Positions 35,764 to 41,227 of a DNA stretch of 64,000 bases are shown here, piece by piece. The notes beneath the pieces were generated by a model, which worked only from the letters and a program-made list of their open reading frames with translations, ran no database searches and was not told where the DNA came from. Location of the stretch: positions 3,360,001 to 3,424,000 of the forward strand of contig CBDFLE010000006.1 in NCBI GenBank assembly GCA_965248925.1, written 5' to 3'. Positions within the stretch are counted from its first letter, which is position 1, and each line of letters begins with the position of its first letter. Source of the DNA: Candidatus Multivoradales bacterium (GTDB lineage Bacteria > Acidobacteriota > Thermoanaerobaculia > Multivoradales > J023). The translations under genes and the position numbers were made by a program.

Positions 35764-35871
35764 CCCGCTCCAGCTGGCAGCATCCGCAATGCTAGACTCC
35801 GGGCCGCTTTAGAGGTTTTTCTCGGACCCAATCTGGCTGGCGACAGAAGCTGGCCGAGTGAGGTGTGGACG

Positions 35872-37431
35872 ATGGCGGACGACTCTGCGAAGGCTACCGC
35901 GCCGGCTAGCCGCGGCTGGCTCGACAAGGCGCTCAACGGGATCGAAGTGGCGGGCAACAAACTGCCGGATCCGGCGGTGCTGTTTCTATTGCTGATGTTC
36001 TTGGTTTGGATTGTCTCGGCGTTCCTGGCGCCGATGGACTTTTCGGAGATCGATCCCCGTACCAATGAGTCGATCGAGGTCAAAAGCCAGCTCAGTCCGT
36101 CGGCGGTGAGCACTTTCATGACCAGCATGATAAGGACCTTCACCGGCTTCCATCCGCTCGGTGTGGTGCTAGTGGCGCTGCTCGGCGTTGGTGTGGCAGA
36201 GCACACAGGTTTCATCAATGCCTGCTTGAAGGGCATGCTGAGCTTCACCCCGAGGACGCTTCTGACGCCCATGCTGGTGCTGGTGTCGATCGTCAGTCAC
36301 ACCGCGGCAGATGCTGGATATGTACTGGTGATCCCCCTCGGCGGGGTCATCTTCTATGCTGCTGGCCGTCATCCTTTGGCGGGTATCGCCGCCGCCTTTG
36401 CCGGTGTTTCGGGGGGGTTCTCGGCCAACTTTCTCATTTCTGGTATCGATCCGCTGCTCTCGGGTCTGACCCAGACTGGCGTCGACATTATCAATCCGTC
36501 TCACCTGGTCAATCCCGCCTGCAACTGGTTCTTCACCGCTGCGTCGAGCGTGCTGGTTATCCTGATCTGCTGGTACATCACCGACCGGATTATCGAACCG
36601 CGGCTACAGGCCACTGAGATCGACGGCGATCCAGACGAGATGCCGAAGATGGAACGGCTGACCAGCGCTGAGCGTCGTGGCATGTGGGCTGGCCTGGCAA
36701 CCTTGGTGGCCGGCCTGCTGGTGTTGCTGCTGGTAGCCCTACCCGAGGGCTCGGTGCTGCGCTCGCCGACGTCTGGCGGTTTGGCCGATCTCGATGCTTC
36801 GCTGATGCGGATGATCGTGCCCTTGATTTTCCTGATGTTCATCCTGCCGGGGATCGTCCACGGCTACGTCTCCAAGTCGATCAAGAATCATCGCGACATC
36901 ATCAAGGGTATGTCGAAGGCGATGTCGACGATGAGCTACTACCTGGTGATGGCCTTCTTCGCCTCGCTCTTCATCTACTCCTTCAGCCAGTCGAACCTGG
37001 GGGTGTTGTTGGCCATCAAGGGTGCTGATTTTCTCAAATCCCTCAACGCCCCAGCCCAGGTGACGATCGTCGGCATTATCCTGCTGGCGGCGTTGGTCAA
37101 CTTGCTGGTGGGTTCGGCTTCGGCCAAGTGGGCCTTGTTGGCGCCGATTTTCGTGCCGATGCTGATGCAGCTGGGGCTGTCGCCCGAGCTTACCCAGGCG
37201 GCCTACCGTGTCGGCGACTCGACCACCAACATCGTCACCCCGCTGATGCCCTACTTCCCCCTGGTGGTGGTGTTCTGCCAGCGTTACGTTAAGAAAACCG
37301 GTATCGGCACCGTGGTCTCGCTGATGTTGCCTTACTCGGTGACCCTGCTGATCACCTGGACGATCTTCCTGCTGATCTACTGGGGCGTGGGCTTCCCTCT
37401 GGGCCTCCAAGCCTCCTACGTTTATCCCTAG
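35872..37431 (+). CDS. abgT: AbgT family transporter
   Basis: GNKLPDP, GRHPLAGIAAAFAGVSGGFSAN, AAYRVGDSTTNIVTPLMPYFP. Confidence 0.93.
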   Translation: MADDSAKATAPASRGWLDKALNGIEVAGNKLPDPAVLFLLLMFLVWIVSAFLAPMDFSEIDPRTNESIEVKSQLSPSAVSTFMTSMIRTFTGFHPLGVVLVALLGVGVAEHTGFINACLKGMLSFTPRTLLTPMLVLVSIVSHTAADAGYVLVIPLGGVIFYAAGRHPLAGIAAAFAGVSGGFSANFLISGIDPLLSGLTQTGVDIINPSHLVNPACNWFFTAASSVLVILICWYITDRIIEPRLQATEIDGDPDEMPKMERLTSAERRGMWAGLATLVAGLLVLLLVALPEGSVLRSPTSGGLADLDASLMRMIVPLIFLMFILPGIVHGYVSKSIKNHRDIIKGMSKAMSTMSYYLVMAFFASLFIYSFSQSNLGVLLAIKGADFLKSLNAPAQVTIVGIILLAALVNLLVGSASAKWALLAPIFVPMLMQLGLSPELTQAAYRVGDSTTNIVTPLMPYFPLVVVFCQRYVKKTGIGTVVSLMLPYSVTLLITWTIFLLIYWGVGFPLGLQASYVYP

Positions 37432-37450
37432 GCGCTTCCCAGATCGATTC

Positions 37451-37490
37451 AAAGCCCGCTTGTCCGATTCGTCGGCTGGCGGGCTTTTTT
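37451..37490 (+). terminator. intrinsic terminator of abgT
   Basis: AAAGCCCGC...GCGGGCTTT followed by a T-run. Confidence 0.85.
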
Positions 37491-37579
37491 CGTTGAACTG
37501 CTGATTACAAACAGCTTCGCCGGGGTTCGGAGAAAGATCTAATCTGTAATGTTAGGCGTAATTCTGTATTGCTCTAATA

Positions 37580-37932
37580 GCGGTCGACGGGGGAAGGCCC
37601 GAGGGGTTTGCGAGGGGGAGGAAGGGCTGGGGCGGGAGAGAGACACTCTGATCAGACCCGGAGTATCGGGTCGAAGGCTCGCGGAGGGGTTTGCGAGCCG
37701 CAAAAGGAAGTCGGCGCTCGGGGCTAGCGCGCCGACTTTGATTGAGGGGGTCGCTGATTTGGCGATTTTCCCCCCTCACAGACCTGGGGTCTGAGTGAGA
37801 GAGCGCGGCTGAGCCGCAAGAGTGGGTGTGAATCCGGGAACTCTTCGGGGTATGCCAGGGGGCGATGGGGGTCGCGGGGCGAAAGAGAGAGCGAATGCTA
37901 GCGACCGCGGAGAGTTCCTGGATTAGTTTTTT
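37580..37932 (+). ncRNA. candidate structured non-coding RNA, family unidentified
   Basis: At least seven adjacent stems with G-U pairs on the + strand, AT-rich patch upstream, terminators on both sides, no credible ORF. Confidence 0.55.
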
Positions 37933-37935
37933 GAG

Positions 37936-37967
37936 AAAGGCCCTCGCGCTGTGCGGGGGCCTTTTTT
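37936..37967 (+). terminator. intrinsic terminator (probably bidirectional) between the candidate ncRNA and glyQS
   Basis: AAAGGCCCTCGC-loop-GCGGGGGCCTTTTTT; the U-G pair and longer T-run favour the + strand. Confidence 0.8.
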
Positions 37968-39543
37968 ATTTGGCTAGAGCAGCGCGCACCACATCGAGCG
38001 CTTCGCCGACCGCGATGCGGTCTTGGCGGCGGTCGTCGCGATGGCGGATAGTCACCGTATCGTCGACCATCGTCTGGCCATCGATGGTCAAGCAATAGGG
38101 GGTACCGACCTCGTCGTGACGAGCGTAGCGCTTGCCGATCGAGTGCTGCTCGTCGTATTTGGCATTGACCCCGGCGGCGAGAAAGCGCTCGACGATGCCG
38201 CGGGCAACCTCGGGCATGCCGTCTTTCTTCACCAAAGGCAAGATACCGGCCTTGATCGGCGCCAGGCGAGGATGCAGGCGCAGCACGGTGCGAGCCCCTT
38301 TGCCCTCGGCATCGGCCTCTTCTTCGTCGTAGGCATCGCAGAGCACCGCCAGCACTCCGCGGGTGGCGCCCGCCGCCGGCTCGACGACGTGGGGCACATA
38401 GCGCCAGCCGTTCTTGCCGGTGTCGGGGTCAACGGCTTGGGGATCGAAGTAGTTGAGCTTCTTGCCCGACCCCTCGCTGTGCGCCTTGAGGTCGTGGTCG
38501 GTCCGCGAAGCGATGCCTTCGAGCTCGTCCCAGCCCCAGGGAAAGCGGTAGTCGATATCGAAACAACCGTCCGAGTAGTGCGCCAGCTCGTCTTCGTCGT
38601 GTTGGCGAAAGCGCAGGTTGTCCTTGTTTAGGCCAATGCCCCGCCACCAGGCCAGGCGCTGCTCTTTCCAGTATTCCAACCATTTCGGCCCTTCGCCGGG
38701 GGGGACGAAGAACTCCATCTCCATCTGCTCGAATTCGACCGAGCGGAAAATGAAGTGCTCGACGGTGATCTCGTTGCGGAAGCTACGCCCCATCTGGGCG
38801 ATACCGAAGGGCACCTTGATGGCGGTCGATTGCAGCACGTTGGGGAACTGCACGAACATCGCCTGGGCGGTCTCTGGCCGCAAGTAGGCGGTGGAATCGG
38901 CCGTCGCTTGCTCCACCCGGCGGCGGATCTCGGCATCGTCGGCGCCGGCTTCGATCGCCGAGCGCACCTGGTTGATCACCTCGCCGATCGGATCCACCGG
39001 CCCCAAGCTAGTGCGCAGCATCAAGTTGAATTGGCGTTCTTCGCTGAGGAAAGGGGAGCCGCAGTTCGGGCAGCCGTAGCCCCGGTCGCCAGCGGTGGCG
39101 CCGTGCAGGGTCTTGCCTTGGCGGCGGAGTTCCAAACCCTCGGTGCGCTCGACTCGTTCGAGCGCCACCTTGGCGCGGCCCTTGTCGGCCAGGGTGATTG
39201 GCGCCGCTTCGCCTGCGGTCAGCCGTGGCGCCTTGTCGGCGCGAAAGCGCTCGCCACAGACCTTGCAATCGACCAGCGGGTCGGAGAATCCCGTCAGGTG
39301 GCCGCTCGAGCGCCAAACGTCGGAGTGCATGATGATCGAGGCGTCCAGGCCGACCACGTCTTCGCGGCTGTGGACCATCGCTCGCCACCACTCGTTCATC
39401 AGATTGCGCTTAAGTTCGGCGCCCATTGGGCCGTAGTCGTAGGCCGAGCGCAAACCGCCGTAGATCTCGGAACTCTGGTAGACGAATCCACGGCGCTTGG
39501 CCAACGAGACGATTTTCTGCATCGAGACGGCGGATGGGCTCAC
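37966..39543 (-). CDS. glyQS: glycine--tRNA ligase (alpha2 type)
   Basis: LAKRRGFVYQSSEIYGG, YLRPETAQ, FEQMEMEFF, ELEGIASR, VVEPAAG, anticodon-binding domain. Confidence 0.96.
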   Translation of the reverse strand: MSPSAVSMQKIVSLAKRRGFVYQSSEIYGGLRSAYDYGPMGAELKRNLMNEWWRAMVHSREDVVGLDASIIMHSDVWRSSGHLTGFSDPLVDCKVCGERFRADKAPRLTAGEAAPITLADKGRAKVALERVERTEGLELRRQGKTLHGATAGDRGYGCPNCGSPFLSEERQFNLMLRTSLGPVDPIGEVINQVRSAIEAGADDAEIRRRVEQATADSTAYLRPETAQAMFVQFPNVLQSTAIKVPFGIAQMGRSFRNEITVEHFIFRSVEFEQMEMEFFVPPGEGPKWLEYWKEQRLAWWRGIGLNKDNLRFRQHDEDELAHYSDGCFDIDYRFPWGWDELEGIASRTDHDLKAHSEGSGKKLNYFDPQAVDPDTGKNGWRYVPHVVEPAAGATRGVLAVLCDAYDEEEADAEGKGARTVLRLHPRLAPIKAGILPLVKKDGMPEVARGIVERFLAAGVNAKYDEQHSIGKRYARHDEVGTPYCLTIDGQTMVDDTVTIRHRDDRRQDRIAVGEALDVVRAALAK

Positions 39544-39880
39544 GATACGACCTTTCCAGTGCTGTACGGCGCTGTTTGGTGCTGGCCCGAGCCGTCTCAA
39601 AGCAGCTCGGGCTGGTGGATGAAGGCGCCTTTTTAACACAGGTGTCGCGGAAATTACACAAACGCCTGAAAACAGGCGTGTTGCTCCCCGTCCCGTCCGG
39701 GCCGTCCCGCCCCAGCGAGGATTTCAGTCCATCGCCGACACTCGAGGCTCTGCTTTGGCTGGCAGGGCCGCACCGCCGCGAGTCTGCTGTACCCTAGTGG
39801 AAGAGTCGGGCTGGCCAAGTAATGCTAGCCAAAGATACAGTCCCTTCGCGGCGAGAGATCAGCAGATTGAGTACTTCAGC

Positions 39881-41227
39881 ATGAATTTTCGACTTTCTCG
39901 AATCCCCCGTCGCTTACCGGCTCTCCTCGCTACCCTGCTGCTTCCTTGGCTGGTCGGCTGTAGTGGCTCGCAACCGCCACCGCGACTTCTACCTTTAGTT
40001 GACAGCGCCGCGCGGACGCCGGTGGTGTTGGTGCCGGGAATCACCGGCACCGAGCTGGTCGACTCGACCGGCAAGATTCACTGGGGCAAGGGTGGCAACC
40101 TTTTCGTGCCTCGCGACCGGGGGTACGGACTGGCTTTGCCGCTGGTCGAAGGTGGCCCGGACCAGCTGCGGGCGGGGCAGGTGATAGAGAGAATCTCGGT
40201 AGGCGGGGTGATCAAGAAGCCGGTTTACGGTCCGATCATCGAGTTGCTGCAAGCTAACGGCTACGTTCGTGGCGATCTGTCGTCTCCAGATAGCGATTCC
40301 GACCTCTATTTGTTTGGCTACGACTGGCGCCGCGACAACTCGACCTCGGCGCGGCGGTTGTTCGCGCGACTCGCGGATTTGCGCCGAGCCCGCGGCGAAG
40401 ATCGCCTGCGAGTGACCCTGCTATGCCAGTCCAACGGCGGCCACATCTGCCGTTGGTTGGCCAAGTACGGCAACGCTACCTTGGCCGCAGCCGAGGCTGG
40501 CCGGGGAGCACCGCCAGTCCAGTTCGAGATCGAGCGGATTGTTTTCGTCGGCACCGCCAACGGCGGCTCGATGCGAATCCTGCGCGAGTTGCACCGGGGT
40601 CGCCACTACGTACCGCTAGTGGGTCGCAAGCTGGCAGCCGAGACCCTGTTCACCTTCCCCTCCCTCTACCAGGATCTGCCGGCCTACCGCGACGATCTCT
40701 TTGTTGACCCGGACGGCCAAACGTTGGCGGTCGGTCTCTTCGATGCGGCCAGCTGGCAGCACTACGGCTGGTCGGCTTTTGCCGCCGATGCAGCGCGGCG
40801 GATGGACCGGCGGCCTGATTTGTTTGGTAGCGAAGCCGATCGCCTGCATTTCCTAGAGGACGCTCTAGCCGCTGGCCAAACCATGCAGCGCCTGCTCCAG
40901 CGGGACGTGGCTGGTTTCTCCGTTGGCCGCTACTTCTTGATCCAGAATGTCTACGAGCCGACTCCTGATCGTGCTGTTCTGGTGCGTCAGAAAGACGGTT
41001 GGGAAATGCAGCTCACCGGCGATCCCAAACTGCGTCAGGACACCTATTTGAGTGCCTTGGTGAGTGCGCCGGGGGATGGCCATGCCGCTCAGGCCAGCCA
41101 AGTGTGGCTGTCACCGCAGGAGCTGGCGGTATTGCACGATCAACCCTTCCACATTCTCGGTGAGCACTTCGAGATGATCCTTGATCGGGGCACCCATCGC
41201 CGGCTGCTCGATTTCTTGCTGGAATGA
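39881..41227 (+). CDS. lipoprotein, LCAT/PGAP1-like alpha/beta hydrolase (lipase/acyltransferase)
   Basis: Lipobox LVGC, VVLVPGITGTEL, YDWRRD, nucleophile elbow CQSNGG, PGDG. Confidence 0.8.
   Translation: MNFRLSRIPRRLPALLATLLLPWLVGCSGSQPPPRLLPLVDSAARTPVVLVPGITGTELVDSTGKIHWGKGGNLFVPRDRGYGLALPLVEGGPDQLRAGQVIERISVGGVIKKPVYGPIIELLQANGYVRGDLSSPDSDSDLYLFGYDWRRDNSTSARRLFARLADLRRARGEDRLRVTLLCQSNGGHICRWLAKYGNATLAAAEAGRGAPPVQFEIERIVFVGTANGGSMRILRELHRGRHYVPLVGRKLAAETLFTFPSLYQDLPAYRDDLFVDPDGQTLAVGLFDAASWQHYGWSAFAADAARRMDRRPDLFGSEADRLHFLEDALAAGQTMQRLLQRDVAGFSVGRYFLIQNVYEPTPDRAVLVRQKDGWEMQLTGDPKLRQDTYLSALVSAPGDGHAAQASQVWLSPQELAVLHDQPFHILGEHFEMILDRGTHRRLLDFLLE

Follow-up and report, generated by a model that had tools for sequence, protein, structure and literature searches.

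A G-rich, multi-hairpin spacer between abgT and a GlyRS-like gene in a Candidatus Multivoradales bacterium: candidate small RNA or transcription barrier

Results

The spacer and its neighbours

The window analysed here is a 64-kb stretch of the genome of a Candidatus Multivoradales bacterium (G000:C6:3360001-3424000, G000 being the source genome), and all coordinates without a contig name are window positions. In this window the convergent genes abgT and a GlyRS-like gene are separated by a 534-nucleotide (nt) gap (37432-37965), which is non-coding, single-copy and G-rich. A preliminary description made from the letters alone had proposed a single structured RNA of ~350 nt in this gap, with a Csr/Rsm sponge as one possible function. 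Our analysis indicates that the element is neither a conserved large structured RNA nor a Csr/Rsm sponge; it is a candidate small RNA or transcription barrier, and its 3' hairpin (H7) is the only part under visible evolutionary constraint. The features are as follows.

35863-37431, + strand: abgT (Pfam ABG_transport, E 1e-189)
37455-37492, + strand: abgT intrinsic terminator T1, a hairpin followed by a T6 run (37485-37490); in the terminator scan, stem 37468-37483 plus CTTTTTTCGT
37530-37580, no strand: AT-rich patch by composition (67% A+T), holding the word TGcTCTAAT at 37570-37578
37585-37643, + strand: G-rich segment (59% G, 14% C) with a G-quadruplex-type motif at 37603-37636
37601-14 and 37684-97, + strand: two exact copies of the 14-mer GAGGGGTTTGCGAG
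37644-37824, no strand: array of six local hairpins (37655-72, 37676-99, 37707-39, 37743-78, 37779-93, 37805-17), flanked by CACTCT (37644-49) and AGAGTG (37819-24)
37831-37924, + strand: long hairpin H7 (94 nt) with a 17-bp outer stem, loop core GCCAGGGGGCGATGGGG (37854-37870) and a G-quadruplex-type motif at 37847-37879
37927-37932, + strand: T6 run two bases past H7, with which it resembles a + strand intrinsic terminator
37936-37971 (hairpin 37936-37964), no strand: terminator hairpin T2, a 12-bp stem with one G-U pair on the + strand
37966-39639, - strand: class II aminoacyl-tRNA synthetase gene (domains HGTP_anticodon and tRNA-synt_2b)

The relatives of the synthetase gene behave as GlyRS. 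T1 coincides with a sub-threshold Rfam match to sX5 (37450-37487). T2 overlaps the GlyRS stop codon (37966-37968) and has the tails TTTTTTATTT on the + strand and TTTCTC on the - strand; it is seen in the + strand folds and as sub-threshold terminator-like Rfam matches, and is absent from the list of the terminator scan. The segment 37300-38074 is identical in the contigs of one sample (four runs). Beyond the synthetase, an open reading frame (ORF) of 490 aa (39755-41227, + strand) diverges from GlyRS, with a coding score of 86.7 and no Pfam family at E <= 0.001.

Coding potential and known RNA classes

The five ORFs of the spacer (54-81 aa) have codon log-odds of -0.07 to -0.47 per codon (called genes reach 0.30 +/- 0.10, the two flanking genes 0.39-0.41), and none has a Pfam match at E <= 1. 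The non-coding status that had been assumed for the stretch is thereby upheld. A pseudogene remnant of former neighbours was considered by comparing 465 ORF translations from the flanks of relatives with the spacer and was rejected, the best E-value being 2.5e-4 uncorrected for the 465 queries.

No match to a known RNA family, riboswitches and SRP RNA among those covered, reached the Rfam 15 gathering score anywhere in the window. At E <= 10 the region 37540-37980 gave seven matches, including ctRNA_p42d, isrD and sX14, all of which overlap the T2 hairpin. The reported lack of RNase P and transfer-messenger RNA (tmRNA) signatures is likewise borne out: RNase P RNA (294.7 bits), 6S RNA (55.4 bits) and tmRNA (C6:2766993-2767348, ARAGORN) all lie elsewhere in the genome. 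A multicopy MITE, a miniature transposable element with inverted repeats, had been named as a competing identity, and both BLAST and nhmmer find the spacer once in its own genome. A hairpin profile and the structure model R3 (see below) locate only 37827-37928 there, and unfiltered cmsearch together with a sequence profile show H7 and no additional decayed hairpin copies in the spacer.

These searches also bear on the proposed sponge, which would titrate a CsrA-family protein through GGA motifs in its loops. Csr/Rsm sponge RNAs expose many GGA motifs in hairpin loops. The spacer does have many hairpins, and one or two loops have a GGA within them or at their margin (37660-66, 37683-92), but five of the seven loops lack it, where several GGA motifs in or near loops had been noted, and the Rfam matches at E <= 10 are confined to T2. 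CsrA (PF02599) has no match in the 96.9%-complete source genome, while the same search was positive in three control genomes. The sponge hypothesis thus lacks its protein, and we regard it as highly improbable.

Composition

Between 37500 and 37975 the + strand has 185 G and 98 C. The GC skew peaks at 0.354 in 300-nt windows (genome-wide standard deviation 0.099, 99.9th percentile 0.311) and at 0.365 in 250 nt, where the spacer ranks 17th among the 1479 spacers of at least 250 nt; the skewed stretch spans ~400 nt. Among 399 G-quadruplex-type motifs in 8 Mb, only ten loci carry two on one strand within 400 nt, the spacer being one of them. The 14-mer listed above and a 15-mer-like word each occur twice within the spacer and nowhere else in the genome. 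There is no family of similar spacers in the source genome: the most structured, most G-skewed and G-quadruplex-rich spacers examined are unrelated to it, and some are probably coding. One G-rich stretch ~17 kb before the window (G000:C6:3343111-3343881) has two G-quadruplex-type motifs and GGN-type triplet repeats and is probably an uncalled coding region for a collagen-like repeat.

Folding of the spacer

All stems listed in the preliminary description are present in the sequence, among them GACCCG/CGGGTC (37655-60 / 37667-72), a 10-bp stem (37708-17 / 37729-38) and the arms of the long domain, AATCCGGGAACTCT at 37831 and AGAGTTCCTGGATT at 37911-24, which belong to a 17-bp stem (37831-47 / 37908-24). 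Two of the suggested pairings need qualification. GGTCGC (37870-75) and GCGACC (37901-06) exist, but their pairing lies outside the minimum-energy fold; CACTCT and AGAGTG exist as well, but on the + strand the probability of a closing helix between them is <= 0.003 when 37585-37972 is folded. The closed architecture has the lowest energy in two cases only: the sub-sequence 37644-37824, which lacks the G-rich leader, and the - strand. In the + strand fold the leader pairs with 37759-37792 (probability 0.42-0.98) and displaces the hairpins 37743-78 and 37779-93; hairpins 1-3 and 6 have pair probabilities of 0.90-0.99 and H7 of 0.99 (fold of 37585-37972).

Measured against shuffled sequences, the segment 37570-37975 (406 nt) has a folding energy of -195.8 kcal/mol on the + strand (z -5.13) and of -150 kcal/mol on the - strand (z -6.87), with 0 of 100 shuffles as good in either case. 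The multi-hairpin part with its G-rich leader (37585-37826) reaches z -2.82 on the + strand (3 of 200 shuffles as good) and z -5.14 on the - strand (0 of 200). The background consisted of 56 spacers drawn at random from the source genome (420-700 nt each), with limits taken from a crude gene caller that covers 84.6% of that genome. Their mean z is -0.6 on the + and -0.9 on the - strand, as against -4.6 and -5.0 for the candidate by the same script; four of them have a minimum z <= -4.5, two of these below -6. The fold is therefore real, but it belongs only to about the top 7% of the genome's long spacers: since four of 56 fold as well, it is unusual and not unique.

The four structured spacers of that sample (z -4.6 to -6.5; G000:C5:152866-153302, C6:4187084-4187608, C5:1815025-1815569 and C6:777880-778444) lie outside the window and are further RNA or repeat candidates. 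The one at C5:1815025 contains a long hairpin built of tandem repeats, and none of the four resembles the spacer studied here.

The remark that non-canonical pairs are mostly G-U on the + strand applies to the 17-bp stem of H7 (two pairs) and to T2 (one pair), but not to the short hairpin cores, which are purely Watson-Crick and therefore uninformative on strand. On the - strand C-A mismatches take the place of the wobbles in H7 and T2, and the stability of H7 drops from -47.2 to -32.9 kcal/mol, a difference of 14 kcal/mol.

Conservation of the spacer

The genome collection holds no second species of the source genus, and comparisons within the family rest on 24 genomes (the source genome and 23 others) from ten genera. 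The whole spacer has no match at E <= 0.001 in any of 40 relatives. Across 299 other genomes of the order only matches of ~18-47 nt appear (per-genome E up to 0.1). One of 36 nt with 92% identity (G219) falls inside a 261-aa stop-to-stop frame; at the protein level the alignment depends on those 12 codons and runs across a stop, and we attribute the match to chance. The spacer also has no match among 72,556 plasmid and 50,697 phage records.

Synteny gives the same picture. Orthologs of abgT (60-74% identity) occur in 20 of the 23 family genomes, and at the 11 best of these loci neither GlyRS nor a comparable G-skewed stretch is found within 1.5 kb downstream. GlyRS orthologs (75-83% identity) are present in all 23, most with a long ORF ~30-130 nt downstream and none followed by a comparable spacer. 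The abgT-GlyRS junction, for which a set of syntenic intergenic regions had been envisaged, was found in the source genome only. A metagenome scan with the GlyRS C-terminus reached at best 81% identity, and none of the loci examined has the candidate; nhmmer likewise gave no match to it at GlyRS loci, 80 of them from genomes and 80 from metagenomes.

A structure model of hairpins 1-3 (R1) has no credible match in the family genomes. Its best foreign match, at 33.7 bits in G010, was discarded: the site lies on ORFs, and helix 2 is broken there. The hairpin array (~250 nt) is without relatives anywhere searched, and the claim of one conserved structured RNA of ~350 nt fails for ~70% of the element.

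H7 has probable relatives in genus g5

For the separate long domain, i.e. H7, the outcome is different: it has probable relatives, with compensatory stem changes, in another genus. A model built from H7 as a single sequence (R2) found its best foreign match (27.7 bits) in G019, which belongs to another genus (g5) within the family. There the end words and a loop word agree with those of H7, the arms carry compensatory changes, and the hairpin stands in two tandem copies. From these two copies we built the model R3 and searched the 24 family genomes, its E-values being rough. R3 matched both copies in G019 (103 and 101 bits), three in G014 (69, 60 and 53 bits) and one each in G017 (60 bits) and G004 (59 bits). 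It also led back to the source genome at 37827-37928 (31.2 bits, E 4.8e-4 per genome), and the other 19 family genomes gave nothing below E 0.02. The g5 element is a 63-66-nt hairpin with a stem of ~18-20 bp, present in four of the five genomes of g5 in one to three tandem copies. The g5 hairpins, with the invariant loop CAGGGGGGCGATGGGG, lie at:

G014, L226:1346-1743
G019, L225:1421-1574
G017, L227:1501-1571
G004, L228:1501-1572

The loop core GGGGGCGATGGGG is identical in all eight copies. In the model-fitted alignment, 17 of the 20 pairs of the source-genome copy are Watson-Crick, two are wobbles and one is a mismatch. At five pairs (1, 9, 10, 11 and 19) both bases of this copy depart from those of the g5 majority. 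The source genome and G019 have G-T at pair 6, G014 and G017 have T-G, and G004 has T-A; the stem pattern ending GATCC.GG.../...CC.GGATC with a wobble at pair 6 is present in the source-genome copy, again in an alignment fitted to the model. Across the 24 family genomes the 17/18-mer loop word is seen at three sites (H7 and both G019 copies), against none in the control.

An R3 match of 30.4 bits in G046 lies within a 521-aa ORF, which places the noise level at ~30 bits, and the source-genome copy (31.2 bits) is close to this false match and was not recovered under stricter filters. A sequence-only profile matches only the loop core of this copy, at 3.1 bits. We consider H7 very probably homologous to the g5 hairpins.

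The arms of H7, AATCCGGG.../...CCTGGATT, are terminal inverted repeats, and the source-genome copy carries a 33-nt loop insertion that includes an apparent decayed 3' arm. The neighbourhoods differ between the genera, with abgT and GlyRS here and a decarboxylase gene dependent on pyridoxal phosphate (PLP) in g5. The g5 hairpins lie 5' of this gene and are co-oriented with it (Pfam Pyridoxal_deC, E 7e-66 in G017 and 5e-69 in G019; a 446-aa ORF at the same position in G004, and an ORF cut by the contig end in G014), whereas the upstream gene varies (SpoIID in G017, SecD/SecF in G019). A link to the decarboxylase gene was considered and dropped: orthologs in the source genome, in G010 (also g5) and in G005, G016 and G001 have no hairpin upstream.

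A sample of 129 genomes drawn from the order's other families gave no credible match to the element. The element is patchy, occurring in two of ten genera and five of 24 family genomes. Two wider searches were rejected as sources of further copies. The pattern AGGGGGCGATGGGG gave ~80 hits over 300 genomes against ~25 for the control, and none of the 29 loci tested is the element; the g5 copies, with six Gs, escape this pattern. Exact 15-mer sites numbered 46 in viral contigs; the best scored 18.5 bits, and none represents the element. The loop word of the hairpin element does not occur in the literature searched.

Two observations concern the g5 loci themselves. In G014 the spacers between the tandem hairpin copies are mutually unrelated. 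A block TAGAGGACGCGAAATC...GATCTGGTCATC is common to these four g5 genomes in the stretch that separates the hairpins from the decarboxylase start (L226 ~1800-1840, with equivalents in L225, L227 and L228). In its first half the block is similar to the hairpin's 3' half (GAGGACGACGGAAAGGCC), and it may be a solo half-copy or a regulatory site.

Strand and transcription signals

The terminator scan places T1 behind abgT, as had been described, and the AT-rich patch before the candidate and the + strand terminator after it are equally present, the latter as hairpin plus T-run at 37936-37971 and likewise as H7 with its T6 run. Three T-runs of at least five bases lie in 37400-38000, all on the + strand (37485-90, 37927-32, 37962-67) and each right after a hairpin. 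The same region holds no A-run of at least five and thus no such T-run on the - strand.

For a promoter proper to the candidate, a sigma-70-like consensus scan gave 0 sites. Canonical TTGACA-N17-TAnnnT words precede the tRNA genes in this genome, so that a standard promoter at the spacer would have been visible. (Before tRNA-Asp, at G000:C6:4606550-4606640, 90 nt of tandem repeats of a word containing TTGACAGTTTCAG form a row of -35-like boxes.) The word TGcTCTAAT, judged by eye against the consensus, is an imperfect extended -10-like word lacking the A at position 2. This A is the most conserved base of that box.

Taken together, these signals could belong to an independently transcribed + strand small RNA of ~350-390 nt, starting after the AT-rich patch and ending at H7 plus U6 or at T2. 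Its 3' hairpin and U-tail would be an Hfq-type module (an Hfq gene is present: PF17209, 56.9 bits), and the invariant G-rich loop of H7, perhaps together with the G-rich repeats, would be the binding site of a protein or a C-rich RNA. The terminator that abgT has of its own upstream, the uniform orientation of the T-runs, the non-coding status and the wobbles of H7 and T2, which pair on the + strand only, all fit such an RNA, as does an H7 loop core that stays constant in eight copies while the stems change compensatorily; the strong G skew would be explained if the RNA itself were selected. Set against this are the lack of a sigma-70-like promoter in the scan, a 5' part of 250 nt that is without relatives and folds on the + strand with a z of only -2.82, and an ambiguous global fold. 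Nor does the hairpin family give a consistent strand, the + strand folding better in four of the eight copies and the - strand in the other four. We consider this a possible explanation and a close rival of the one favoured below, though a doubtful one.

The opposite strand offers a second RNA, either the 3' untranslated tail of the GlyRS mRNA or a product processed from it. Here the six hairpins, closed by a CACUCU/AGAGUG helix, would make up a compact domain, and the C-rich single-stranded tail with CCUCC-like motifs would either load Rho or act as a seed directed at G-rich ribosome-binding sites. The closed architecture is both the minimum-energy and the centroid fold on this strand, and the hairpin domain folds better against shuffles than on the + strand (z -5.14 versus -2.82). 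The weak T2 tail TTTCTC makes read-through plausible; the tract 37643-37585 that would then be transcribed has 59% C and 14% G and is mostly unpaired in the - strand folds, and the genome has a Rho gene. However, the higher z comes partly from the poor folding of C-rich shuffles (mean -69 versus -98 kcal/mol), no relatives were found, H7 loses 14 kcal/mol on this strand as its wobbles and those of T2 turn into C-A mismatches, and the absence of T-runs of at least five in 37400-38000 leaves such an RNA no clean 3' end. We consider it unlikely.

Discussion

We tentatively favour, at a little under even confidence, the reading of the gap as a lineage-specific composite spacer that would be at most a two-way transcription stop between the convergent abgT and GlyRS genes. 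Its 3' third would be one diverged copy of a rare palindromic hairpin, whose stem of ~18-20 bp presents the invariant G-rich loop. The remaining ~250 nt would be a young G-rich run of near-perfect hairpins, probably with no function of their own; the short stems are purely Watson-Crick, as is to be expected if inverted repeats are young. Transcription on the + strand would be stopped by three successive terminators, each a hairpin with a T-run. On the - strand, the GlyRS terminator has a weak tail, and transcripts reading through it would reach the C-rich unpaired tract, which is of the Rho-loading type.

Several points weigh against this composite spacer. A strong G skew over ~400 nt is unaccounted for by a passive spacer, and the private 14-mer and 15-mer repeats are left unexplained as well. 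Two + strand terminators 440 nt past that of abgT, together with an AT-rich patch, resemble a separate + strand RNA gene. On the - strand, the initial ~300 nt of the RNA form a strong fold (z -5.14) that would impede the loading of Rho before the final ~60 nt. The terminator and Rho functions, moreover, are read from sequence.

A bolder proposal unites the hairpin family with the G-rich composition. H7 and its g5 relatives may represent a new narrow class of RNA hairpins, whose loop GGGGG(G)CGAUGGGG would be recognised by a C-rich RNA or a protein. In the source genome the hairpin would be the 3' module of a small RNA of ~350 nt with 42% G that carries two G-quadruplex-type motifs and the repeated G-rich words, and this RNA would act as decoy or sponge for a factor other than CsrA. 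We rate this as rather improbable.

If the + strand RNA exists, it would be a first regulatory-RNA candidate in a poorly studied large-genome lineage known mostly from metagenome assemblies. The invariant G-rich-loop hairpin would be a compact handle for finding the partner, because compensatory change has already been seen across two genera. If the spacer is a mere transcription barrier derived from a decaying palindromic element, its value is cautionary. In this 62%-GC genome, several percent of the long spacers show z-scores near -5 and perfect hairpins in a row; such features are not by themselves the mark of an RNA gene.

Comparison with known systems

With CsrB/RsmZ-type sponges the spacer has in common that it is multi-hairpin, non-coding and intergenic; it differs in the missing CsrA gene, the missing Rfam match and the few GGA loops.

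Another comparison is with repetitive extragenic palindromes (REP), bacterial interspersed mosaic elements (BIME) and MITE-like repeats such as enterobacterial repetitive intergenic consensus (ERIC) and Correia elements. Like these, H7 and its g5 relatives are imperfect palindromes of 63-94 nt in spacers, the copies are tandem (one to three) and vary in number by species at one locus, and the neighbourhoods differ between genera. Unlike them, the H7 family has one to three copies per genome at one locus instead of tens to hundreds, the loop and not the arms is invariant, and no target-site duplication is seen in the flanks.

Hfq-class trans-acting small RNAs, none of whose families was matched specifically, are likewise intergenic and non-coding, with a stable 3' hairpin and U-tail and a lineage-specific distribution, and the Hfq gene is at hand. 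The candidate departs from them in its length, 350-390 nt being long for such RNAs, and in the lack of a promoter in the scan.

In comparison with intrinsic and two-way terminator zones, a 534-nt spacer with seven extra hairpins far exceeds what termination needs, the ~400-nt G skew is foreign to such zones, and the stop itself is a prediction from sequence. The likeness lies in the GC-rich hairpins followed by T-runs (T1, H7 with its T6 run, and T2) and in one hairpin common to both convergent genes. The C-rich, G-poor and unpaired tract on the weak-tailed strand, in a genome with a Rho gene, in turn resembles the tracts at which Rho acts as a backup.

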